Shown: positions 1,134-14,437 of the stretch, in pieces
Layout: each line of letters begins with the position of its first letter
Position numbering within the stretch: position 1 is the first letter of the stretch
Origin: Gemmatimonadota bacterium
GTDB taxonomy: Bacteria > Gemmatimonadota > Gemmatimonadetes > Gemmatimonadales > GWC2-71-9
Assembly (NCBI GenBank): GCA_039587315.1
Contig: JBDHIS010000001.1
Coordinates: 39 to 64,038 of the forward strand
DNA: 64,000 nucleotides
Direction of reading: 5' to 3'
Program-made: the position numbers and the translations under genes
The notes under the pieces: model-generated
The model's database searches: none
What the model saw: only the letters and a program-made list of their open reading frames with translations
What the model was told of the DNA's origin: nothing

Positions 1134-3134
1134 CTACTGGCAGAGGTTCCCGTTGTTGTACTGGTCCAGCGTGTAGGCCAGCTGGAGCGCCGTCTGGTAC
1201 TCGGCATCCTTCGGGCGCAGGTAGCTGCCGGTGCCGTCGAAGCCGATCGACATCAGCAGGTTCTCGGCATCGAGCGCGGCCTGCGCCGCGGCCGGGCAGG
1301 TCCCCGCACCCGCAGCGAAGTTCAGCTGCGCTGCCAGCAGGTGCATGGCAAGAGTGTACGCCGCGTCACTGGCCTTCTTCCTGCCGGTGTTGATGTCCCG
1401 CTGGTCGAGGATCGAGACGCCTTGCGCGCAGCCCAGAATCTGGAAGTCACCCCAGATGATCCCCGGCGAGGTCAGGATGTCGTCGAGCAGGTACCAGCCC
1501 TCGGCCGGGCCGCCGTTCTTGGTCGCGGTCTGGACCTGATTGCCGCTCGTACAGCGGTTCCAGTTCTTCCAGTAGCCGGGCGTGCGCGTATCGCCGCCGG
1601 GGAAGGTGTTGTTCACCTCGAACACCAGGGTCTGTCCGACCACGACCGAATACGCAGTGCCGGCACCGAACTCGAAGCAGAGGTTGCCCTCGTTCGCGGG
1701 CGGATTGTCGTCGGCGTTGGGGTTGTAAGGGATGATGTTCTGGTCGGCGACACCGTCGTTGTCAGTGTCCACCTTCCATTCGCTCGACCAGCCGGCCGGA
1801 ACGCCCAGCTCGCACACCGTGTAGCTCAAGTCGCCGCGCAGCGCCGGGTTCCCGAACTCCAGGACGCCGTCGAGGTCCCCGGACGTCGAGCTGGTTACGC
1901 CCACCTGGGTGCCGCCGAAACCGTCCGGACCTTCGTACAGGGCGAAGCTCCACTCCTTGCTTGCATCGACCACTCCCTCGGTCAGCTTGAGCAGGCTCAT
2001 GAAACCGGCTTCGCACGTGTAGGTGGTCGAGGCCGAAGACTGGTCTTCCTGGCCGTCATTGCCGGTCACGACGGCCGTGTTGTTCAGCGTGGCCGAGTAC
2101 GTACCGTCGGCGCCGTAATCGGCGGCGTCGACCGAGCAGGTGTGGCTCTGCGTCTCGGTCCAGGTCCACGGACCCTGGCCCGCAGTGAGCGTGAGCGGGA
2201 AATCGGGCTCCTGGTCGTCGTTTATGTCGGCGGTGCCGTTGAAGACGTTTTTGGTCCAGTCTATGTTGGCCTCCGCCGTGGCGCCGTCCACGTCGGGGTT
2301 CAGGCTGGTAACCGTGGCAGTGTTCTTCGTGGCCGTGGCATCACCGGGTGCGGCGGAGTACGTGCACTCTACCGAGCCGCCCGCCCCGAGCTCGTAGCTG
2401 GGGCAGCTGACCGTGGCCTCCGTACCGTCGCCGAGCACATCGGTTACCTCGAACGTGACGTCGAACGGCGTCGGGTTGCCAACCGTGATGGTCCCGCTCA
2501 CCGAGAAGTTCTCCTCGACGGAGCTCTCCGACAGGTCCACGGTCCAGGTCCAGGACAGCTCGTCGCCCGCGTAGCCCATCTGGGACTCGGGGTCCACCGA
2601 CTTCTCCACGTCCCACGTGTGGGTCTCGTCGTACTCGCCGGCGGCCTCCTTCTCAGCAGTGAGCTCGTAGTCGTAGCAGAACTCGATGTGGCTGATTGCG
2701 GACGGCTGGCCGGTGTTCGAGTTGATGGGTGAGTGCAGGGCGTCGTCGGTGGTCGCCTCGGGGGCGTAGGCGTACACGTTGGCGTTCGGGCCACCCTTCA
2801 CGATCACCGCGTCAAGGCTGAGCGTCGAAGTCCACTCGAAGTACGTCCCGTCGGAGGTGATGGTGACCGTCTCGCTGGTGCTCGGGAACGTGTAGCTCCC
2901 ACTGGGTGGCGGCTCCGGTTGCGGCTTGAAGCCGACGTCGTAACCGAGATCCGTGCAGGACGGGTTGCCCAGTACGACCTGTGGGACTACGTGCCGTAAC
3001 TGCGGCGTCGTGGGCGACCCTCCGTCATCCCGCGCTGGATTGGTCAGCTCCTGGGCTCCGTCGCCGCAGGCCCAGGCAAACACCAAGGCCAGGAGCGCGC
3101 CCGGCAACCACTGCCGTTTCTTCGAACGCCTCAT
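1134..3134 (-). CDS. large secreted lipoprotein of unknown function with repeated beta-sandwich-like modules
   Basis: ATG at 3134 is preceded by GGAGGA. The N-terminus MRRSKKRQWLPGALLALVFAWAC has a signal peptide and lipobox-like Cys. Repeated Thr/Gly/Asp-rich segments follow (e.g. TVGNPTPFDVTFEVTDVLGDGTEATVSCPSYELGAGGSVECTY). The C-terminal domain is Cys-containing and helical. Confidence 0.7.
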   Translation of the reverse strand: MRRSKKRQWLPGALLALVFAWACGDGAQELTNPARDDGGSPTTPQLRHVVPQVVLGNPSCTDLGYDVGFKPQPEPPPSGSYTFPSTSETVTITSDGTYFEWTSTLSLDAVIVKGGPNANVYAYAPEATTDDALHSPINSNTGQPSAISHIEFCYDYELTAEKEAAGEYDETHTWDVEKSVDPESQMGYAGDELSWTWTVDLSESSVEENFSVSGTITVGNPTPFDVTFEVTDVLGDGTEATVSCPSYELGAGGSVECTYSAAPGDATATKNTATVTSLNPDVDGATAEANIDWTKNVFNGTADINDDQEPDFPLTLTAGQGPWTWTETQSHTCSVDAADYGADGTYSATLNNTAVVTGNDGQEDQSSASTTYTCEAGFMSLLKLTEGVVDASKEWSFALYEGPDGFGGTQVGVTSSTSGDLDGVLEFGNPALRGDLSYTVCELGVPAGWSSEWKVDTDNDGVADQNIIPYNPNADDNPPANEGNLCFEFGAGTAYSVVVGQTLVFEVNNTFPGGDTRTPGYWKNWNRCTSGNQVQTATKNGGPAEGWYLLDDILTSPGIIWGDFQILGCAQGVSILDQRDINTGRKKASDAAYTLAMHLLAAQLNFAAGAGTCPAAAQAALDAENLLMSIGFDGTGSYLRPKDAEYQTALQLAYTLDQYNNGNLCQ

Positions 3135-3355
3135 AGTTCCTCCGTTAATGGGTGATAGATTCTGTCGGGTTTCGGGCGCGCAACAGGCTAACAGCAGGCC
3201 CCCACCTGCGCAAGGCCATCTGCTCCGGGGCACAGAGCGGCCTTCACGCCGACGCCCCTGGGGCGCCGACTGAGGCCGGGCGAATCCCTTAACCGCGTCA
3301 ATCATCATCCCCAGCTATTGTGGCGGGGCGATCCCCGATACAATTTGTTTAGATT

Positions 3356-6259
3356 GTGCGCTCCTCCCATCCCCGGCCCGATGAGGGCCTGGCCCGGCGG
3401 CTATCGGCCCTCCTGAGGCTCAGCGCCGAGATCGCCGCGGCCCTAGACGAACAGGAAATCTGTGACCGCGTCGTGCACGGCCTGCGCGACGAGTCGCTGG
3501 GGTACCACTTCGTGGGCCTGTTTCTGGTCGACGCAGCCACCGGCGACCGTGTCATGCGCGCCGCCGTGGGGTGGAAGGACACCTCGGCGGGATGGCGCGT
3601 GCCCAAGGGCGAGGGCCTGAGCGCGCGCGCCCTGAAGGACGGGCAGGTCCACTACACCCCGGACGTCACCAAGGAACCGCTCTACATACCGGGCCTCTCC
3701 ACCGGCTCGGAGGTGGACGTCCCCCTCATCATCGAGGGTGAGCCGGCCGGCGTCCTCGTCGTGGAGAGCGAACAGCCCGAGGCATTCGCCAAGGAGGACT
3801 TCGACATCCTCACTGCGGCGGCCACGCAGGCCAGCATCGCCATCGCGCGCGCCCGCCTCGTGGAGAGCCAGCGGCAGCTGCTTACCGCCGAGCGGCGGCG
3901 CGCCGACGAGCAGGAGGCACTGCTCGAGACCATGGCCGACCTCTCGGCGGAGCTCGAGCTGTCGAAGCTGCTCGAAGCGGTGCTGCGGCGCGCGGTCACC
4001 CTGCTGGGTGTGAGCGGCGGAGAGCTCGCCATCTACGATGAAGCGGCGCACGAGCTCGAGATCGTGGCCAATCACAACACCGAGCAGGTCTCGGTCGGCA
4101 CCCGTCTCGCGGTGGGAGAAGGCGCGATGGGGCACGTGGCCGAGACTCGCGAGCCGCTCATCATCTCGGACTACGCCCAGTGGTCGGGGCGGTCCGATCG
4201 TTACTCCACGGTCGAGGCGCACGCCGCCGTGGTGCTCCCGCTGGTGGTGGGCGGACGGCTGGTCGGCGCCATCGACTTCTGGCACGCCGATCGGGATCGC
4301 CAGTTCGGCCCCGAGGATGACCGCCTGCTCAACCTGTTCGCTACCCAGGCCGCGGTCGCCATCGAGAACGCACGGCTCTACACCACGGCACGACAGCAGC
4401 AGCAGTACTTCGCCGAACTCGTGCGCAACAGCCCCGTCGCCATCGTGGCCCTCGACCCCGCGCACAATGTCGTCTCGATCAACCCGGCGTTCGAGAAGCT
4501 GTACGGCTACACCGAGCGGGAGGTGATCGGCCAGAACCTGGACGACCTGATCACCACCGAACAGACCAGGGCGCAGGCGGTAGCGTACACCGAGGAAGCT
4601 TCGGATCACGCGGTCCACGGCATCGGGCAGCGCCGCCGCAAGGACGGCAGTATGGTGGACGTCGAAGTGCTGGCCGTTCCGGTAGACGTGGACGGCGAGC
4701 GCGTGGGGTTGATGGGCCTGTACCACGACGTCACCGAGCTGCTGCGCGCGCAGCAGGATGCCGAGGACGCCAACAGCGCCAAGAGCCAGTTCCTCGCGAA
4801 CATGAGCCACGAGCTGAGGACACCGCTCAACGCCATCATCGGCTACAGCGAGATGCTCCAGGAGGACGCCGAGGATGCCGGCCAACAGGGGTTCGTTCCC
4901 GATCTCGAGAAGATCCACTCGGCCGGCAAGCACCTGCTGGCGCTGATCAACGACATCCTCGACCTGTCGAAGATCGAGGCCGGCAAGATGGAGCTGTACT
5001 GCGAGGATTTCGAGGTCGAGCAGGTGGTGCGCGACGTTGCGACGACGGTGCGGCCGCTCGTCGAGAAGAACTCAAACCGCCTGGAGCTCGCATTCGGCGA
5101 CGGCCTGGGCACGATGAACTCCGACCTGACCCGCATCCGCCAGGTGCTGCTCAACCTCCTGTCCAACGCCTGCAAGTTCACGGAGGGCGGCACCATCACC
5201 CTGGAGGTGAGCCGCGGCGACATGATGCATTTCCGCGTCGCGGACACGGGAATCGGCATGACCGCAGAGCAGTTGGAGCGGCTGTTCGAGGCGTTCTCCC
5301 AGGCCGACATCACCACCGCCAGCAAGTACGGCGGCACTGGGCTGGGGCTGGCCATCAGCCGGCGCTTCTGTCAGATGATGGGCGGCGACGTTCAGGTCGA
5401 GAGCGATCCCGGCAAGGGATCGACGTTCACCGTGCGGCTCCCCGTGAGCGCGCCCAAGCCGGGAGAGCCCGAGCAGCTGGAGCTGGTGGGCGAGGGCGGC
5501 GACGGCCACGCCGGCACGGTGCTCGTCATCGACGACGACCCCGCGGTGCGCAACCTCATGGTGCGGTTCCTGGGCAAGGAGGGCTATCGCGTGCTGCCCG
5601 CCGCCGATGGCGAGACAGGGTTGCAGCTCGCCCGTGACGCGCGGCCCGACGTGATAACCCTCGACGTCATGATGCCGGGGATGGACGGGTGGGGAGTCCT
5701 CACGGCGCTCAAGGCAGACCCGGCGCTCGCGGACATTCCAGTCGTGATGCTCTCGATAGTCGAAGACAAGAACATGGGCTTCTCGCTGGGCGCTTCGGAG
5801 TACCTCACCAAGCCGATCGACCGCAGCAGGCTGACGGCGATTCTGGCCAAGTACGCGCGCGACGGACGCCAGGGATCGGTTCTCGTGGTCGAGGACGACG
5901 GCGCCACCAGGTCCATGCTCAAGCGATCGCTCGAAGGGAGCGGCTGGCACGTGACCGAGGCATCCAACGGACGCATCGCGCTGGAGCGTGTCGCGGAGGG
6001 GTGTCCCGACCTGGTGCTGCTCGATCTGATGATGCCCGAGATGGACGGCTTCGAGTTCCTGGAAGAGTTCCGCGACGGCGCCGGGTGTCAGGCCGTGCCC
6101 GTGGTCGTTCTCACCGCAATGGAGCTCACGGAGCAGGACCGGCGCCGTCTCAACGGCGGCGTGGAGCGGATCGTCCAGAAGAGTACGTACGGCCGTGAGC
6201 AGCTGTTGGCGGAGGTGCGCGAGCTCGTGTCCACGCGCACACCGGCGGTGAAGCCGTGA
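3356..6259 (+). CDS. cytoplasmic hybrid sensor histidine kinase (GAF-GAF-PAS-HisKA-HATPase-REC-REC)
   Basis: Motifs read: two GAF-like modules ending in AIAIARARL / [10 protein letters not shown]; PAS-like [11 protein letters not shown]...[14 protein letters not shown]; H-box [18 protein letters not shown]; N box [12 protein letters not shown]; DTGIGM; [12 protein letters not shown]. Two receivers follow (VLVIDDD...[10 protein letters not shown]...LTKP and VLVVEDD...[10 protein letters not shown]). No hydrophobic TM-length segment. Confidence 0.9.
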
Positions 6260-8775
6260 GCGGTCCGCATGGGGCGAGAAAGCACATGACCGGCGCCGAC
6301 GCGTCGCCGGCCAAGATGCGCTCCGCACTGCTCGGCCTCAGCACTCGCATCGCCGAGTCGCAGAACGAGACCGACGTATGTCGCGCAGTTGTCGAAGGGC
6401 TGTGCCGCGTCGAGTTCGGCTTCGATGGAGTGGGGCTCTTTCTGGCGGGTAGCGAGTCGTTCTCGCCCGCGCTCAGGGCCAGTGCCGGGAAGTTCGGCGC
6501 CGGAGACGGCCAGGTCTCCGAGCTGAAGCTGCCGCTCCAGGTGGGACAAAGCGCGATCGGCGAGCTCGTTGTGCAGCGCGAACGCTCGAGGGCGTTCGAC
6601 AAGGGCGATCTGGAGATCCTGGGAGCGGCCGCCAACCAGGCCAGCATAGCTATCGGGCGAGCCCGGTTGCTCGAGTCCGAGCGGGCGCGGATCACCGAAC
6701 AGCGGGCACTTCTCGACACGCTCGCTGACCTGTCCGGCGAACTGGAGCTGGACAAGCTCCTCCAGGCCGTGTTGGAGCGTGCGGTGTCTCTCCTCGGGGT
6801 CACTGGCGGCGAGCTCGCCGTGTTCGACGAGACGGCCGAGCAGCTCGTGATCGTTGCCAGCCACAATCTGGGAGAGGACTCCACCGGCGCGCACATGAAC
6901 CTCGGCGAGGGAGCGATGGGCCACGTCGCCCTCACTCACGAGCCGTTGATCATCCCCAACTACCAGGAGTGGGAGGGACGCTCTCCGCAGTACACGGACC
7001 ACACGGTGCAGACAGTGATGGTCGTGCCGCTCCTGATCGGCGCGAGGCTCGTGGGAGCCATTGCGAGCGTCCACTCGGACCCCTCTCGCAAGTTCGGCGA
7101 GGCTGACCTGCGCCTGCTGAACCTGTTCGCCGCCCAGGCCGCGATCGCGATCGAGAACGCCCGGTTGTTCGACGCCGAGCGGCGGCGCGCCGAAGAGCAG
7201 CGCGCGCTGCTCGACACGATGCAGGACCTCTCGGGTGAGCTGGAGCTCGCCAAGGTGCTTCAGCGAGTGCTGGAGCGCGCTGCCACGCTTCTCAACGTTA
7301 CCGGAGCTGAGGTGGCCACGTACGACGAGGCCGCGGAAGACCTCGTTATTTCCGCCAGCCACAGCATGGGCTGGGACGCCGTCGGAAATCGCATGGCCCT
7401 GGGGGAGGGCGCGATGGGTCAGGTGGCGCAGACCCACGAGCCCCTGATCATCCCCCGTTACCAGGAGTGGATCGGTCGCTCGTCCCAGTACACGCAGAGC
7501 ACCGTGCAGACCGTAATGGTGGCACCGCTACTGATCGGGACCAGGCTGGTGGGCGCCATCGCCGCCGTGCACTCCGATCCCGACCGGGAATTCGGCCCCG
7601 AGGATCTCGCACTGCTCCAGCTGTTCGCTCCCCAGGCCGCGATCGCGATCGAGAATGCTCGCCTCTTCTCCACCGCACAGCGGTACGTCGAAGACATAGT
7701 GCTCAACAACCCGGTCGCCATCGTGAAGCTGGACCTGGACGTGAACATCACCTCCTGCAACCCCGCGTTCGAGAGGTTGTTCGGGTATAGCGCGGACGAG
7801 GTGATCGGGCGGAACCTCGACGAGCTCGTCACGACCGAGGAGTCCCGGGCCGAGGCTGAAGCCTACTCGGAGCAAATGCTGGCCGGACGCCGGACCACCG
7901 GCGTCGGGCAGCGGCGCCGCAAGGACGGCTCGCTGATGGACGTTGAAGTGTTCTCGATCCCGGTCATCGTGGGCGGCGCGCGTGTAGGGATGATGGCCAT
8001 GTACCATGACATCACCGAGCTGCTCGACGCTCGTCGCGCCGCCGAAGAAGCCAGCCACTCCAAGAGCCGATTCCTCGCCAACACGAGCCACGAGCTCAGG
8101 ACCCCGCTCAACGCCATCATCGGCTACAGCGAGATGATGCTCGAGGACGCCGAGGATACCGGCGACGAGGAGTCCGCATCGGACCTCCAGAAGATCCGAG
8201 CCGCCGGACGACACCTGCTCTCGCTGATCAACGACATCCTCGACCTCTCCAAGATCGAGGCGGGGAGGATGGAGCTGGACCTGGAGACCTTTGGAGTGTG
8301 CGAGGCGATCAACGACGTTGCAACCACGGTGCACCCTCTGGTCGAGAAGAACGCCAACCGGCTCGAGATCGATTGCTCCAAGGACCTCGGTTCGATTCAT
8401 GCCGACGCGAAGCGCGTCAGGCAAGTGCTGCTGAACCTGGTGTCCAACGCGAGCAAGTTCACCGAGAAGGGCGCCATCAAGATCGACGCGGCCCGCGAGG
8501 GAAACGGTGCCCCGGACGGAGAGTGGCTGGTCCTGCGGGTGAGCGACTCGGGCATCGGGATGACGGCGGATCAGGTGGCGCGACTGTTTGAGCCGTTCTC
8601 ACAGGCCGACGCGGCGACGAGCACCAAGTACGGCGGCACCGGTCTGGGGCTGGCCATATCCCGACGACTGTGTCAGATGATGGGGGGAGACGTCACGGTA
8701 GAGAGCGAGAAGGGACAGGGCTCCACGTTCACCGTGCGCCTCCCCGCGGTCGTTTCCGAAAGGGGACTCCACTAG
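6256..8775 (+). CDS. cytoplasmic sensor histidine kinase (three GAF modules-PAS-HisKA-HATPase), paralog of the preceding gene
   Basis: GTG 6256 overlaps the upstream TGA (GTGA). H-box [18 protein letters not shown]; [12 protein letters not shown]; DSGIGM; [12 protein letters not shown]. No receiver and no TM segment. An ATG at 6286 is an alternative start. Confidence 0.88.
6679..7674 (+). repeat. in-frame tandem duplication of a 498-nt (166-codon) GAF module inside the second kinase
   Basis: Copy A is 6679-7176 and copy B is 7177-7674. Both run ER..(E)[16 protein letters not shown]..(L)..VLERA...[50 protein letters not shown]...[21 protein letters not shown]. The string gcgatcgcgatcgagaa recurs at 7141 and 7639, exactly 498 nt apart. 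Confidence 0.8.
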
Positions 8776-8777
8776 CA

Positions 8778-10907
8778 GTGCCTCGTTCCTCCACCGCACG
8801 CAAGAGCGCCGAGCCCGACAGGAGCGCCGCCGCCCACAGGCAGGCGGCGCTGCTGCGCCTCAGCACGGAGATCGCAGCCGCCCACGACGAGGAGGGGATC
8901 TACCGCTCCGTCGTGCACGGCCTCCACGACGAGGCCCTCGGATACAACTTCCTCGGCGTGTTCCTACTGGATCCCGAGTCGGGCGACCGCGTGCTCCAAG
9001 CGAGCATGGGTTGGCCCGATGTGCCGGACGCCTGGCGGGTGCACCGCGGGGAAGGTCTCAGCGAGCAGGCATTGCTGGACGGCGAGCTGCACTACACCGC
9101 CGACGTGACCCGTGAATCCCGCTACCTCCCCAGCCTGGCCAGTGGCTCCGAGGTGGACGTCCCCTTGAGGGTGGACGGCACGACGATCGGCGTCCTGGTC
9201 GTCGAAAGCGCCGAACCGAATGCGTTCGGCGGCGAGGACTTCGAGATCCTCAATGCAGCCGCCAACCAGGCGAGCATCGCGGTGGGCCGGGCCAGGCTCC
9301 TGGCGTCCGAGCGGCGTCGCGCCGACGAGCACAAGGCTCTGCTCGACACGATGGCCGATCTCTCGGCCGAGCTGGAGCTGTCGCGCGTGCTGCAGGCCGT
9401 GCTGGTGCGGGCGGTGAGCCTGCTTGGGGTGACGGGCGGAGAGGTCGCGATATGGGAGGAGGAGGCGCAGGAGCTCGTCGTGCTAGCGAGCCAGAACATC
9501 GGCAAGGACTCCACGGGCACGCGACTCAAGCCGGGCGAGGGAGCAATGGGAACCGTAGCCCGGACCCAGGAGCCGATCATCATCCCGTCGTACGCAGAGT
9601 GGCTGGGCCGCTCGACCAAGTACTCGGATCTGACGATTCACTCCGTGATGGCGGCGCCGCTCCTGATCGGGCGACGGCTGGTGGGTGCCATCGCCACGAT
9701 TCACGCGGATCCGGAACGCGAGTTCGGCCCCGAGGACATGCGGCTGCTCAACCTGTTCGCGCCGCAGGCGGCGATCGCGATCGAGAACGCACGCCTCTAC
9801 ACGGAGGCGCAGCGCCAGAAGCAGTACTTCGAGGAGCTGCTCCAGAACAGTCCGGTAGCCATCGTCACGCTGGACCGCGATTACAGCATCGTCAGCTGCA
9901 ATCCCAACTTCGAGAGCCTGTTCGGCTACTCGAGCGACGAGGCGGTGGGTCGGAATCTGGACGAGCTGATCACCACCGAGGCCACTCGCACCGAGGCCGA
10001 GCAGTACACTCGCGAGGCACTGGATCGCGCGGTCCACGGAATCGGCCGGCGGCAACGCAAGGACGGGACGTTGGTGGACGTGGAGGTGCTGGGAGTTCCG
10101 GTGATCGTTGACGGCGAGCGCGTGGGACTCATGGGCCTGTACCACGACATAACCGAGTTGCTCCGGGCGCGTCAGGAGGCGGAAGCAGCCAACAGCGCCA
10201 AGAGCCAGTTCCTGGCCAGCATGAGCCACGAGCTCCGGACACCGCTCAACGCAATCATCGGCTACAGCGAGATGCTGCAGGAGGAGGCGGAGGATCTGGG
10301 GCACGCTGAGTTCGGCGGGGATTTGCAGAAGATCCACACCGCCGGCCGGCACCTGCTGTCACTGATCAACAACGTGCTGGATCTGTCCAAGATCGAGGCG
10401 GGCCGGATGGAGCTCTATCTCGAGGACTTCGACGCGAGCACGATGATCGATGACGTGGTGACGACCGTGCGCCCGCTGGTGGACAAGAACTCCAACAGTC
10501 TCGAAGTCGAGCAGGCCGACGATCTGGGAAGCATGCACGCCGACTTGACCAAGGTGCGGCAGATGCTGCTCAATCTGTTGTCCAACGCCTGCAAGTTCAC
10601 CGAGGGCGGAGCGATTACGCTCGCGGCAGAGCGCGGGAAGGACAACGGGAGGGAGATCATCACGTTCTCCGTCAGAGACACCGGCATCGGGATGACCCCG
10701 GAGCAGATGGAGCGGCTGTTCGAGGCGTTCTCCCAGGCCGAGGCTTCCACGACCAGCAAATACGGTGGGACGGGGCTCGGGCTCGCGATCACGCGCAGGT
10801 TCACGAACATGATGGGTGGAGATGTGCAGGTAGTCAGTGCGCCCGGTGAGGGCTCGACATTCACAATTCGTTTGCCGGCGGCGGTCGAGGCCGCGCCGGC
10901 TACGTAG
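8778..10907 (+). CDS. cytoplasmic sensor histidine kinase (GAF-GAF-PAS-HisKA-HATPase), third paralog
   Basis: GTG 8778 lies 2 nt after the upstream TAG (8773-8775). The ORF-track start at 8670 would overlap the upstream gene by 106 nt and adds an Arg/Gly-rich non-homologous leader. H-box [18 protein letters not shown]; [12 protein letters not shown]; DTGIGM; [12 protein letters not shown]. Confidence 0.85.
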
Positions 10908-10919
10908 AGGGGGAGCGCG

Positions 10920-11291
10920 ATGGCCAGGATCCTCTTGGTCGAGGACAACGAAATGAACCGCGACATGTTGTCGCGGCGACTCGAGCGCAAGGGATTCGAG
11001 ATCACCATGGCCGTGGATGGGCGGGAAGGGGTCGAGATGGCCAAGGCGGGCGACTACGACCTCATTCTCATGGACATGAGCCTGCCTGAGATCGACGGCT
11101 GGGAGGCAACGCGGCAGCTGCGCGCAGCGCCCGACACCGAGCGCACGCCGATCATCGCTCTCACGGCGCACGCCATGGCAGGTGATCGGGAAAGGGCGCT
11201 CGAGGCCGGTTGCGACGACTACGACACGAAGCCGATCGAGCTGGATCGTCTGCTGTCCAAGATCAACGCCCTGCTGGAGAAGAACACGTGA
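10920..11291 (+). CDS. stand-alone response regulator receiver (CheY-like)
   Basis: GGGGGAG precedes the ATG. MARILLVEDNEMNR...LILMDMSLPEIDGWE...IIALTAHAM...YDTKPI gives a complete receiver motif set with no output domain. Confidence 0.9.
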   Translation: MARILLVEDNEMNRDMLSRRLERKGFEITMAVDGREGVEMAKAGDYDLILMDMSLPEIDGWEATRQLRAAPDTERTPIIALTAHAMAGDRERALEAGCDDYDTKPIELDRLLSKINALLEKNT

Positions 11292-13210
11292 GCGCTGGTT
11301 CCGATCCCGGTGCACAGCTCTCCCGTGACGCGGTCAGCGAGCTGCGACACGAGCTGCGCACACCGGTCAATCACATAATGGGCTACGCCGAGATGTTGCT
11401 CGAGGATCTCGGCCCCGACCCGACCGAGCGCCGAACCGCACTCGAGGAGGCAGTCGGCGCCGCGCGAGACGTGCTCTCGCTGGTCAGCGTCTCGCTCCCA
11501 TCCGGCCGAACTGAGGTCGCGGAGGGTGAGGTCGCAGCACTGTACGAGTCACTGCGCGAGCCGCAGCAACGCATCTTCCAGGCGCTCACACCCCTGGTAG
11601 GGGACGGCACCGACGCGGGAGACGAGTTCGTCGCGGATCTCAAGAGGATCCTGAACGCCGCCGAGCGGTTGGTGAGCGCACCGGCGCCGACACCGGCCAA
11701 GAAGAATGAAGCGGTGGCAGCGCCGAGCGACGCCGAGGACGCCCAGGCGCGGATTCTCGTCGTGGACGACGTCGAGGACAACCGCGAAGTGCTGCGCCGG
11801 CGGCTCCAACGCGAGGGTTACACCGCCGATTGCGCAGAAGACGGTCACGCCGCACTCGAGATGATTGGCGAGAAGCCCTACGACCTGGTTCTACTCGACA
11901 TGCTGATGCCGGGCATCGACGGATACGAGGTCCTGGGACGCCTCAAGGACTCTCCGGCCACGCGGGACATTCCCGTGATCATGATCTCCGCACTCGACGA
12001 GCTCGACAAGATCGCGAGCTGCATCGAGCGGGGCGCGGAGGACTATCTCCCCAAACCCTTCGATCCAGTGTTGCTGCGGGCCCGCATCACCGCGTGTCTC
12101 GACAAGAAGCGGCTGCGCGACAAGGAGGTCGAGTACCTGAGGCAGGTGGGACGGGTGATCGAGGCCGCCACGGCTGTCGAGACCGGCGGTTACGAGTCGG
12201 AGACGCTGGCCGAGGTGGCGGGCCGGAGCGACGAGCTGGGGCGGCTCGCGCGTGTGTTCGACGGCATGGCGGCCGAGGTGCGCTCGCGCGAGGAGAGACT
12301 GCGCCGCCAGATCGAGGACCTCAAGACGGAGGTTTCGGCGGCGCGTGGCGCCAAGCGCCCCAGTGGCGCGGAGCTCGACTTCGCCAGCCTCGGCACCGGA
12401 AAGCGGTTCGCCGGCCGCTACGAGGTTCAGGAGACCGTGGGTGCCGGCGCGATGGGGATGGTCTATCGCACCAAGGATCTCGAGCTGGACGAGGAGGTCG
12501 CCATCAAGACAGTGAAGCCCGAGCTCGTGGTGGACGATACCGCGGTCGAGCGGTTCAAGGACGAGATCCGGCTGGCCCGCAAGATCTCGCATCGGAACGT
12601 CGTCCGCACGCACGACTTCGGCGAGTGGCAGGGCGTCTACTACCTCACGATGGAGTACGTCGAGGGCGTCACGGTGCGGGACCTGCTCGACACCCGCGAG
12701 CAGCTCGGCGTGTCGCCCACGATGGCCATCGCGACGCAGCTGGCCGCGGCCCTGGCCGTGGCGCACGAACAGGGAGTCATCCACCGCGACATCAAGCCAC
12801 AGAACCTCCTGCTGGACTCCGACGGCGTGCTCAAGGTGATGGACTTCGGCGTCGCGCGGCTGGCAGAGCGAACCAGCAGCATCACTGAGACCGGACTGGT
12901 CGTCGGGACGCCCGCGTACATGTCTCCGGAACAGCTGCTGACCGACGCCGATCTCGACCCGCGCAGCGACCTGTGGGCGGTCGGCGTGGTGCTCTACGAG
13001 TGTCTCACCGGCAAGCTGCCGTTCACGGCCGCCACACCGGTCGCGCTGATCGCCAAGGTGCTGAACGAGGAGCCTCCCACACCCGCCGAACTCAACCCGG
13101 AGGTGCCCGAGACGCTCTCGGCCCTGGTGCTCGAGCTCCTGGCCAAGCGCCGCGAGGACCGTCCAGGATCGGCGCGGGAACTCGAGGAGCGGCTCGGCCG
13201 GCTCGCGTAG
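11288..13210 (+). CDS. multidomain signalling protein: ATPase-less H-box (HisKA-like) domain, receiver, HAMP-like/coiled-coil linker, Hanks-type Ser/Thr protein kinase
   Basis: GTG 11288 overlaps the receiver's TGA (GTGA). H-box SELRHELRTPVNHIMGYAEML has its His codon at 11348-11350, and no N/G1/G2 ATP-lid boxes follow. Receiver: RILVVDDVEDN...LVLLDMLMPGIDG (Asp codon 11897-11899)...IMISA...YLPKP. Linker: DELGRLARVFDGMAAEV. Kinase: GAGAMGMVY, VAIKTV, HRDIKPQN (12782-), DFG (12842-), GTPAYMSPE. Confidence 0.85.
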   Translation: MSAGSDPGAQLSRDAVSELRHELRTPVNHIMGYAEMLLEDLGPDPTERRTALEEAVGAARDVLSLVSVSLPSGRTEVAEGEVAALYESLREPQQRIFQALTPLVGDGTDAGDEFVADLKRILNAAERLVSAPAPTPAKKNEAVAAPSDAEDAQARILVVDDVEDNREVLRRRLQREGYTADCAEDGHAALEMIGEKPYDLVLLDMLMPGIDGYEVLGRLKDSPATRDIPVIMISALDELDKIASCIERGAEDYLPKPFDPVLLRARITACLDKKRLRDKEVEYLRQVGRVIEAATAVETGGYESETLAEVAGRSDELGRLARVFDGMAAEVRSREERLRRQIEDLKTEVSAARGAKRPSGAELDFASLGTGKRFAGRYEVQETVGAGAMGMVYRTKDLELDEEVAIKTVKPELVVDDTAVERFKDEIRLARKISHRNVVRTHDFGEWQGVYYLTMEYVEGVTVRDLLDTREQLGVSPTMAIATQLAAALAVAHEQGVIHRDIKPQNLLLDSDGVLKVMDFGVARLAERTSSITETGLVVGTPAYMSPEQLLTDADLDPRSDLWAVGVVLYECLTGKLPFTAATPVALIAKVLNEEPPTPAELNPEVPETLSALVLELLAKRREDRPGSARELEERLGRLA

Positions 13211-13234: not shown

Positions 13235-13265
13235 GGCCCCGGCCACCACTTGGGTGGCCGGGGCC
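13235..13265. terminator. bidirectional terminator hairpin between convergent genes
   Basis: GGCCCCGGCCACC-ACTTG-GGTGGCCGGGGCC is a perfect 13-bp stem. AAAA lies on its 5' side, which reads as a T-tract for the minus-strand gene. Confidence 0.6.
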
Positions 13266-13286: not shown

Positions 13287-13949
13287 CTACTGCAGGATCG
13301 CTACCGGATACGTGAAGCCGGCCGAGAACATCCAGCTGCGGCCCTTGACGGTTTCCCCCGGAGAGTCCACCGCCACGTTGGTTAGACCCAGGTCGTACAG
13401 AACGTCCAGGAAGACGGTCGCGGGCCCCGCGTTGATCCCGAGCCCGCCACCGAACATCAGACTCCACAGGGTCTTCTTGCGATCGGCGTCTATTAGCGGG
13501 TCGTCGCAGTCGAACGAAGCCTCGACTCCACCCTGGGTCCCTGAAACGGTGCACCCGGCCTCGAAGGCGACAGCGGGACCTCCCATGATCCGGATCGCCA
13601 CCGAGGAGCCCACCGGTAACTTGCCCTTGGCCATGAGCGGCACCTGTATGTACGCCGCGTTGAAATTGGCATCGACGCCCGGCTCGATGGAATTGAACCC
13701 CTGCTGCGTGTACAGACCGTCGATCTCGATCCCGAAGAACTCGTGCAGATCCAGAGCCACCACCAAGCCGGCGTGGAACCCTGTCTTCGAGTTGATCTCC
13801 TCGGGCGGCGGCGGGTTCCAGCTCACCGTGGACAGGTTGAGGCCGCCCCTCAGCCCGAGGCCGATCGACTTCGACTGCGCCTCGGCGGAGTTGGCGAAAA
13901 GCGCCCCCACAGCCACCATGGCGAGCGCGGCGAGTACTTGCTTCCTCAT
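13287..13949 (-). CDS. outer-membrane beta-barrel protein (OmpA-like barrel/porin family)
   Basis: ATG 13949 gives signal peptide MRKQVLAALAMVAVGALFANSAEAQ. Alternating hydrophobic strands follow, and the C-terminus is aromatic (FSAGFTYPVAILQ). Confidence 0.7.
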   Translation of the reverse strand: MRKQVLAALAMVAVGALFANSAEAQSKSIGLGLRGGLNLSTVSWNPPPPEEINSKTGFHAGLVVALDLHEFFGIEIDGLYTQQGFNSIEPGVDANFNAAYIQVPLMAKGKLPVGSSVAIRIMGGPAVAFEAGCTVSGTQGGVEASFDCDDPLIDADRKKTLWSLMFGGGLGINAGPATVFLDVLYDLGLTNVAVDSPGETVKGRSWMFSAGFTYPVAILQ

Positions 13950-13987
13950 GGTCCCCCCCTTCCCTGCGTAATGCTGCTCTTTCGTGC

Positions 13988-14437
13988 CTATTGCCGCGCC
14001 TCGGGGCGCACCTGCCACAGCACGTTGACGATCTTCCACTCGCCGTTCCATAGCGCGAGGTGCATGTAGTCGATCCAGTCGCTCGCGTCCACACGCGCTG
14101 AGGCGGTCCCCTCGTAGATGTCGAGGATCGTCACATCGGTGCGCACCTGGTCCCGCGGAGTGCGCGTTCCATACCCCGCAGCCGTTGCCTGAACCAGCTG
14201 CTCCGCGGTCATGTCTCGCATCCCCGTGTCGCCGGTCTCCGGATTGACGCCCACGATGCGCTTGGCCAGCTCAGGATGAAGCGCCCGCTCCATGCGCGCG
14301 GCGTCGCCGGCATACCACCCCTCGATGTAGTCCAGGGCCGCCTGCCGGACGCCGGCCGAATCGGCAGCCGTTTGGGCTTCGCCGGCCGCGGAAAGCCCAA
14401 TCGCTGCCGCCGCGACCAGAATCATTATCCTCTTCAC
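13988..14437 (-). CDS. secreted NTF2-like (SnoaL/lumazine-binding-like) protein
   Basis: Signal peptide MKRIMILVAAAAIGLSAAGEAQ. AALDYIEGWYAGDAARMERALHPEL...WKIVNVLW is the pattern of NTF2-fold putative lumazine-binding family proteins. Confidence 0.6.
   Translation of the reverse strand: MKRIMILVAAAAIGLSAAGEAQTAADSAGVRQAALDYIEGWYAGDAARMERALHPELAKRIVGVNPETGDTGMRDMTAEQLVQATAAGYGTRTPRDQVRTDVTILDIYEGTASARVDASDWIDYMHLALWNGEWKIVNVLWQVRPEARQ

Follow-up and report, generated by a model that had tools for sequence, protein, structure and literature searches.

A Gemmatimonadota protein joining a tandem DHp module and a receiver to a HAMP-linked Ser/Thr kinase: a candidate end point of a phosphorelay

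The target protein and its domains

We describe here a gene located in a 64,000-nucleotide stretch of DNA from a Gemmatimonadota bacterium (assembly GCA_039587315.1, contig JBDHIS010000001.1, positions 39 to 64,038 of the forward strand), which is called the window below. The gene, the last of five tightly packed plus-strand genes (3356-13210), is predicted to encode a protein in which two DHp (dimerisation and histidine phosphotransfer) hairpins, a receiver, a HAMP linker and a Hanks-type Ser/Thr kinase follow one another, and we discuss it as a candidate phosphorelay component. A first reading made from the letters alone, the sequence-only reading, had proposed an ATPase-less H-box domain, a complete receiver, a HAMP-type linker and an intact Hanks kinase. 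This architecture is borne out by Pfam, by the motifs and by their conservation, and the codons assigned to the phospho-accepting His (CAC, 11348-11350, His21) and Asp (11897-11899, Asp204) proved exact. The gene and its parts, all on the plus strand, are the following.

11288-13210, plus strand: target gene, 640 residues, tandem DHp, receiver, HAMP and Ser/Thr kinase (open reading frame (ORF), Pfam, orthologue alignment)
11324-11494, plus strand: DHp repeat 1, residues 13-69, helices alpha1 and alpha2, with a canonical H-box (Pfam HisKA, invariant H-box, AlphaFold helices)
11522-11668, plus strand: degenerate DHp repeat 2, residues 79-127, helices alpha3 and alpha4 (hhalign, alignment to relatives, AlphaFold, Foldseek)
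11678-11740, plus strand: flexible Ala/Pro-rich linker, residues 131-151, from the helix bundle to the receiver (predicted local distance difference test score, pLDDT, below 50; length and sequence variable among orthologues)
11750-12088, plus strand: receiver domain, residues 155-267, phospho-acceptor Asp204 at 11897-11899 (Pfam, invariant active-site residues)
12089-12349, plus strand: last receiver helix running into the first amphipathic helix (AS1) of the HAMP (260-299), connector, second amphipathic helix (AS2) DELGRLARVFDGMAAEV, and signalling helix to residue 354 (AlphaFold, Pfam HAMP, paralogues)
12419-13207, plus strand: PknB-like Hanks Ser/Thr kinase domain (Pfam, PDB entry 5u94 of PknB, invariant motifs)

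The reading frame is open from 11210 to 13210. The GTG at 11288 shares the sequence GTGA with the TGA stop of the upstream receiver gene, which makes a 4-nucleotide overlap, and GGAG lies 8 nucleotides 5' of it; in the orthologous loci the gene likewise starts 4 nucleotides before the upstream stop. The public gene call for the same sequence (P0001, 610 residues) begins instead at ATG 11378, that is at Met31, and thereby removes the phospho-acceptor His21 together with the first half of the H-box. Consistent with this start, its precomputed Pfam list holds no HisKA entry; nor do those of P0017 (558 residues) and P0102 (620 residues), both shorter than the orthologues of about 640 residues, and of P0040 (641 residues), which is full length. 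In an alignment of 34 Gemmatimonadota orthologues (59-93% identity), most members have Val, Ile or Leu at position 31, and residues 11-30 form the best-conserved stretch of the N-terminus. We therefore rejected the Met31 start. The sequence-only reading had allowed for a true start that excludes the H-box, and the public start does cut it, but the conservation shows that 11288 is the true start and that the H-box is part of the protein. The public call is thus an example of a systematic gene-call error, one that deletes the phospho-acceptor His.

Orthologues of the protein are conserved across Gemmatimonadota, where they fall into more than 120 clusters at 90% identity. A scan of a genome collection with the full-length alignment was swamped by generic kinases and recovered six true orthologous loci; locus L084, on a frameshift-ridden long-read contig, was left out. 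Invariant in all 34 aligned orthologues are R20, H21, R24, T25, P26, N28, H29, G32 and Y33 in the H-box, D160, D161, D204, S234 and K256 in the receiver, and K407, E426, H499, R500, D501, N506, D519, F520, G521, P547 and E548 in the kinase.

The N-terminus matches Pfam HisKA over residues 13-67 (E 9e-11, 42 bits against a cutoff of 26.9), as a DHp domain with a phosphorylatable His does, and NCBIfam returned nothing but DHp matches for residues 1-131. A Pfam search of the 640-residue product gave no HATPase_c match at E<=1, and the target protein is therefore not a histidine kinase. In the AlphaFold model four helices (13-40, 46-69, 79-104 and 112-127) precede the disordered linker, and no beta strand appears in residues 1-151, hence no cryptic ATPase. 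A hidden HATPase_c domain in residues 60-150, which had been envisaged as a possible objection, was thus rejected: there is no Pfam or NCBIfam match, the region is all-helical in both AlphaFold models, and it is homologous to a DHp repeat. Membership of the HPt class was also rejected, since neither the Hpt profile (no Pfam match at E<=1) nor the fold matched. A separate model of residues 10-131 shows a single compact helical unit with good confidence (pLDDT 92.6, predicted template modelling score 0.86). Foldseek searches with the N-terminal model matched only up-down four-helix bundles (E>0.08, TM score about 0.5), too generic to name a specific relative. A sequence search of the PDB with residues 1-155 returned only weak matches, to DHp domains of true kinases (SrrB at 5e-4, DivL), and did not match Spo0B or ChpT.

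Comparison of the two halves of this region by hhalign (residues 11-72 against 77-131) placed 51 columns in register (P 6e-5), with His21 opposite Glu87 and LRTP opposite LREP. When relatives from other phyla are aligned with the window protein, their second H-boxes fall on its residues 84-104. One of these relatives, P0154, is a plain HisKA-HisKA repeat whose second copy reads ...LRHELLTPITAAIGYTEMLLED; P0156, P0159, P0161 and P0201 show a similar repeat, the His of the second repeat is replaced in P0209 and P0205, and Pfam itself counts two HisKA stretches in P0243. Judged from these alignments, the N-terminus is a tandem duplication, a DHp bearing the His followed by a degenerate DHp'. The end of helix 2 meets the required start of helix 3, so that a short linker suffices for a four-helix bundle made of one chain. 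From this topology we infer that a single chain may rebuild the bundle that a normal kinase forms by dimerising.

The receiver (Pfam Response_reg, residues 156-267, E 3e-29) is complete, with its acidic pocket, Asp, Ser/Thr, beta5 aromatic residue and Lys; the aromatic residue is Y253, located three positions ahead of K256, where 33 of the 34 sequences have Y or F and one has V. In NCBIfam the receiver is matched best by PleD and PhoB, which are terminal regulators. In the AlphaFold model the last receiver helix runs unbroken into AS1, as far as residue 299, and a second long helix spans 316-354. The Pfam HAMP model scores residues 284-332 at 23.4 bits, just below its cutoff of 25, and several orthologues carry a precomputed PF00672 match. 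Moreover, the HAMP and kinase half (residues ~285-639) is about 50% identical to Gemmatimonadales paralogues with the order transmembrane segment (TM), periplasmic domain, TM, canonical HAMP and kinase, the HAMP following TM2. The linker first described as HAMP-like is thus common to transmembrane receptor kinases and is probably a true HAMP. Three such paralogues, with a periplasmic domain of about 250 residues, lie at L010 4966-7065, L007 4864-7068 and L011 4981-7000, the last copy being frameshifted in a long-read assembly; these HAMP-coupled Hanks receptor kinases of Gemmatimonadales may merit a separate study.

The kinase domain (Pfam Pkinase, residues 378-629, E 1e-54) carries the motifs of the Hanks type: the G-loop, K407, E426, HRD 499-501, DFG 519-521 and SPE 546-548. 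It aligns with Mycobacterium tuberculosis PknB (PDB 5u94) at E 1e-54, the activation loop SSITETGLVVGTPAYMSPEQ opposite NSVTQTAAVIGTAQYLSPEQ of PknB, so that the invariant Thr533 corresponds to PknB Thr171. Every catalytic residue being intact and invariant, a pseudokinase, which the sequence-only reading had kept in mind, was rejected, and the domain is predicted to be a catalytically competent kinase of the RD type. An Obscuribacterales protein (L015 5995-7671), which shares 31% identity with residues 155-639 of the window protein, shows a different route to receiver control of a kinase: about 130 residues resembling an OmpR-type winged helix join its receiver to a Hanks kinase.

The operon and its conservation

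The target gene is preceded by three histidine kinase genes (HK1, HK2 and HK3) and by a gene for a free receiver. These genes and the elements bordering them are as follows.

3102-3116, plus strand: terminator-like hairpin just upstream of HK1
3356-6259, plus strand: HK1, hybrid kinase GAF-GAF-PAS-HisKA-HATPase_c-REC-REC, first gene of the operon, predicted start taken from the longest ORF and uncertain (ORF, Pfam)
6256-8775, plus strand: HK2, soluble kinase GAF-GAF-PAS-HisKA-HATPase_c, overlapping HK1 by 4 nucleotides (ORF, Pfam)
8778-10907, plus strand: HK3, soluble kinase GAF-GAF-PAS-HisKA-HATPase_c (ORF, Pfam)
10920-11291, plus strand: stand-alone receiver of 123 residues, proposed phosphoryl shuttle (Pfam Response_reg, 6e-29)
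13235-13265, no strand assigned: perfect 13-bp GC-rich hairpin with 12 GC pairs, between the target and the convergent gene, with a T-run on the minus strand
13287-14051, minus strand: convergent neighbour, outer-membrane beta-barrel gene

Pfam finds HATPase_c (6e-32), HisKA (4e-22) and two stretches of Response_reg in HK1, whose second C-terminal receiver has an atypical beta5 region (ERIVQKS). For HK3 the longest ORF runs from 8670; the likely start is the GTG at 8778, 3 nucleotides past the HK2 stop, and the orthologous genes encode 714-716 residues. The three kinases are paralogues in tandem with almost identical DHp helices, and helix alpha1 of the target DHp, which reads RHELRTPVNHIMGYAEMLLED around the His, is nearly identical to theirs. 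The free receiver has as its best NCBIfam matches the receiver segments of the hybrid kinases BarA, HrmK, RcsC, ArcB and TorS, and its helix alpha1 resembles that of the internal receiver. Kinase, intermediary receiver, His-transfer module and terminal receiver, the parts of a relay, are thus encoded together. Within the five-gene block we found no terminator-like site on the plus strand, and the hairpin at 13235-13265 is the likely end of the operon and a likely bidirectional terminator. Elsewhere in the window, a 724-residue minus-strand ORF (1134-3308), which has no Pfam match at E<=0.001, overlaps a plus-strand ORF of 534 residues (1128-2732).

We then compared the window with 14 other loci carrying a target-type gene, eight from Gemmatimonadota and six from elsewhere (Verrucomicrobiia L085 and L086, Dehalococcoidales L087, L088, Deltaproteobacteria L089, L090); some of the 14 have no phylum assignment. 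A free receiver gene lies directly upstream of the target-type gene in all 15 loci, and in most of them the two overlap by 4 nucleotides. In the 14 other loci this receiver has about 110-125 residues and is always preceded by one to three complete kinases. The eight Gemmatimonadota loci have the same arrangement throughout: one to three GAF/PAS kinases, a receiver of about 120 residues and the HisKA-REC-kinase gene; genes further downstream are not conserved. Likewise, each of the six loci outside Gemmatimonadota has the free receiver directly upstream and a kinase before it. The gene calls of Verrucomicrobiia give the tandem DHp a gene of its own, of 116 residues, between the free receiver and a REC-cyclase, which is the layout of a dedicated phosphotransferase; an identical copy of this protein occurs on at least 24 contigs.

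A wider family of tandem DHp proteins

An exhaustive profile search with the tandem-DHp alignment returned 290 representative clusters (50% identity) at E<=1e-30. This search of representatives was used because a word-indexed database search with the N-terminal profile gave only short or partial proteins, missed the full-length orthologues and yielded no architectures. We scored the domain orders of the 138 retrievable top representatives with hidden Markov models built from window sequences. The order DHp-DHp-REC was found in 70, the same order followed by a kinase core in about 16, and DHp-DHp only in 30, mostly fragments along with some stand-alone genes. Among the 120 tandem pairs that could be scored, at least one His is kept in 118: 55 have it in both repeats, 54 in the first only and nine in the second only, with none in the remaining two. 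In the full-length members, Pfam identified the following outputs.

Guanylate_cyc (class III cyclase): 34 of 75 full-length members
HATPase_c: 20 of 75
SpoIIE (PP2C): 7 of 75
Pkinase: 1 of 75
HD_5: 1 of 75
Sigma54_activat: 1 of 75

All 75 members have a receiver of one distinctive subtype, with the motif IPVIMISALDE...GAEDYLxKPFxPVLLxARIxAxLEKKRLRD, which the window protein has as well. As far as these profiles can tell, the tandem DHp and its receiver are a widespread input cassette, with outputs that are mostly class III cyclases, then histidine kinase cores and PP2C, and uncommonly a Ser/Thr kinase. The architecture had been called rare at the outset; this holds for the Ser/Thr kinase output, but the protein itself is conserved across Gemmatimonadota and its input module is widespread with other outputs. 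The source annotations of the family are generic ('response regulator', 'hypothetical', 'RsbU', 'protein kinase').

Some members depart from the common plan. In P0241 (906 residues) and P0244 (833 residues) the receiver is preceded by a run of four or five DHp repeats, three H-boxes being intact in P0241, and such multi-repeat members exceed what a pseudo-dimer model explains. In another lineage, P0266 (624 residues, L090 4001-5875) is an independent fusion of a tandem DHp, a receiver and a protein kinase domain, with no HAMP and with three free receivers upstream in its locus. The N-lobe of its kinase looks truncated, the glycine loop (GQGG) being followed directly by FRNEAKII, with no obvious VAIK lysine, and this kinase may be a pseudokinase.

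A candidate phosphorelay and its alternatives

We lean, by a modest degree, towards the target protein being the last component of a four-step His-Asp-His-Asp phosphorelay whose output is Ser/Thr phosphorylation. In the proposed scheme, HK1-3, with their cytoplasmic GAF and PAS domains, would autophosphorylate and hand the phosphoryl group to the free receiver of 123 residues. This receiver would then dock on the tandem DHp and phosphorylate His21, the module taking the role of an HPt, Spo0B or PhyT. His21 would next donate the group, over the flexible linker of 20 residues, to Asp204 in the internal receiver. Finally, the phosphorylated receiver would signal through its C-terminal helix into the HAMP and the signalling helix, altering the geometry of the kinase dimer and thus its activity, and the kinase would autophosphorylate Thr533 in its activation loop and phosphorylate its substrates. 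The transfer steps, their direction and the sign of the receiver effect on the kinase, be it activating or inhibiting, are our conjecture.

Several observations point this way. The H-box is invariant in a protein that has no ATPase domain, which supports a phosphotransfer role, as there is no other obvious reason to keep the His. The retention of at least one His in 118 of 120 tandem pairs, the constant neighbourhood of the free receiver gene and the stand-alone form of the module in Verrucomicrobiia also speak for the scheme. The free receiver resembles intermediary receivers of hybrid kinases and the internal receiver resembles terminal regulators, a difference that agrees with the relay. 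In the Spo0F, Spo0B and Spo0A series one docking code serves successive transfers; the target alpha1 resembles that of HK1-3 and the alpha1 helices of both receivers are alike, and therefore one docking code could serve all transfers here also. In addition, the HAMP-kinase half recurs behind transmembrane sensors and is therefore a module that accepts conformational input from upstream.

Other points weigh against this scheme. It is built on sequence, models and gene context. With two receivers of its own, HK1 exceeds the needs of a minimal relay. The tandem DHp bundle is an AlphaFold monomer model, with which a domain-swapped dimer is also compatible, and neither HPt nor DHp structures were among the Foldseek matches of the N-terminal model. 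The kinases could phosphorylate Asp204 directly, bypassing the relay, as the receiver alpha1 helices are alike. Moreover, a phosphatase as a second or alternative function fits equally well, given that the H-box keeps its H-E/D-x-x-T motif (H21, E/D22, T25).

The weightiest of the rival explanations develops these last two points. According to it, the tandem DHp would serve chiefly as a built-in phosphatase or docking site, speeding the dephosphorylation of the internal or the free receiver, while the kinases phosphorylate Asp204 directly and the free receiver serves as a phosphate sink or competitor. The invariance of the phosphatase motif and the similarity of the receiver alpha1 helices agree with this, and Galperin et al. 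raise the same possibility for 'HisKA, no HATPase' proteins (PMC5847659). PhyT, too, was first taken for a phosphatase, its reported dual role being PhyR sequestration and phosphotransfer (PMC5898713). Yet a sink leaves unexplained the constant presence of the free receiver gene upstream (15 of 15 loci, usually with the 4-nucleotide overlap), just as a phosphatase leaves unexplained the His found in both repeats of many members. The phosphatase reaction of HisKA domains does not strictly need the His, yet this residue is almost never lost in the family. On these grounds we regard the explanation as unlikely.

A split hybrid kinase appears less probable still. Here the ATPase domains of HK1-3 would phosphorylate His21 in trans, the group would move on to Asp204, and the free receiver would modulate the kinases. 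What speaks for it is the near identity of the target alpha1 around the His to that of the three kinases; however, ATPase domains normally act inside their own dimer, the second hairpin of a single-chain bundle fills the face needed for heterodimerisation with a kinase, and no role is left for the universally linked free receiver. As for the N-terminal module being a structural or dimerisation remnant of a degraded kinase, devoid of phosphochemistry, with the receiver alone controlling the kinase, the lost ATPase domain and the decayed second repeat of Gemmatimonadota (Glu87 for His) recall such a fate, but this reading, which we hold to be very improbable and the last in weight, fits poorly with an H-box invariant in orthologues down to 59% identity, with a His kept in 118 of 120 tandem pairs, and with the RHxLRTPxNH sequence that a scaffold would not need to conserve.

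The phosphorelay that we favour has an experimental precedent in the Pak-SdrG-PhyT-PhyR system of Sphingomonas melonis, which comprises several kinases, a single-domain receiver, a kinase-like phosphotransferase and a terminal regulator (PMC5898713). In this system, and in Caulobacter MrrA-PhyK/LovK (PMC5898713, PMC5964349), several sensor kinases feed one single-domain receiver, as would be the case here. The likeness extends to a kinase-derived protein with a conserved His and no kinase activity that passes the phosphoryl group to a terminal receiver. However, PhyT, a homologue of kinases, is bound to the membrane and forms a polypeptide of its own, whereas the module described here is a soluble single-chain tandem DHp in cis with the terminal receiver, and the PhyT relay ends in an anti-anti-sigma factor instead of a Ser/Thr kinase.

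The Spo0F-Spo0B-Spo0A relay of Bacillus and the CckA-ChpT-CtrA relay of Caulobacter (PMC3433190, PMC9981736) also place a DHp-derived transferase between two receivers in a four-step relay, as is proposed here. The Spo0B/ChpT-style phosphotransfer of the sequence-only reading is in this respect the function best supported by the context; the structural side of the comparison calls for a refinement, the module being a tandem DHp predicted to form its bundle in a single chain and not a dimeric hairpin with a pseudo-CA domain. Indeed, Spo0B and ChpT are homodimers with one helical hairpin and an alpha/beta pseudo-ATPase domain, while the protein described here has two hairpins per chain and no alpha/beta domain. 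The hairpin with the His is there, but two repeats of a single chain are predicted to make up the helical unit, and in the AlphaFold model this all-helical module is followed by the disordered linker and the receiver. No sequence similarity of the tandem DHp to Spo0B or ChpT was detectable. HPt domains (PF01627; ArcB-HPt, Ypd1, LuxU) are monomeric four-helix bundles with a phosphorylatable His, fed by receivers of the hybrid-kinase type, as the tandem DHp is proposed to be; however, the tandem DHp is a clear HisKA derivative with a full H-box, so that the likeness would be one of convergence, not of membership. On the output side, the catalytic domain and the RD-type activation loop with its conserved Thr are shared with PknB-type receptor kinases, but these and the TM-sensor-HAMP-kinase paralogues have an extracellular PASTA or Cache-like sensor where the present protein has a cytoplasmic, relay-fed receiver.

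Proteins with a phospho-acceptor domain and no ATPase have been recognised before, as 'HisKA, no HATPase' proteins or 'possible incomplete histidine kinases' in an archaeal census (PMC5847659) and in P2CS, and were never studied. Those proteins have a single HisKA with PAS, GAF or REC; nothing is said there of a tandem duplication, of an obligate free receiver next to it or of a D-D-REC-output cassette. Our search of the literature, limited to a library that leaves out most subscription journals and thus weak evidence on this point, turned up no account of a tandem or single-chain DHp module. We know of no characterised one either. The logic of the relay and each individual domain are already known. 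What appear to be undescribed are the duplicated DHp as a one-chain transfer module, its fixed pairing with a free receiver and the coupling by HAMP to a Hanks kinase.

More tentatively, and with somewhat less than even confidence, we propose that the tandem DHp is a new class of single-chain, pseudo-dimeric His phosphotransfer domain and that, with the free receiver, it makes a portable relay input cassette reused across phyla. The cassette would sit on class III cyclases, histidine kinase cores, PP2C, HD-GYP and sigma-54 activator domains, and in Gemmatimonadota on a HAMP-coupled Hanks kinase. If this is true, the monomeric HPt and the dimeric Spo0B/ChpT would be joined by the tandem DHp as a third structural solution for His phosphotransfer, one that arose by duplication of a kinase hairpin so that one chain replaced a dimer. 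It would also mean that a large, generically annotated family, of about 290 clusters at 50% identity, plays a relay role that would be missed by censuses scoring kinases and HPt domains with Pfam models.

The signalling of bacteria by two-component systems and that by Hanks-type kinases are usually regarded as separate languages, and the known links between them are mostly cross-phosphorylation of regulators. If our proposal is correct, the operon described here would provide a direct wire from His-Asp signalling to Ser/Thr phosphorylation. As one operon encodes all the parts of the relay, five purified proteins would be enough to reconstitute the chain in full; in Gemmatimonadota a complete phosphorelay would thus gate a Ser/Thr kinase.

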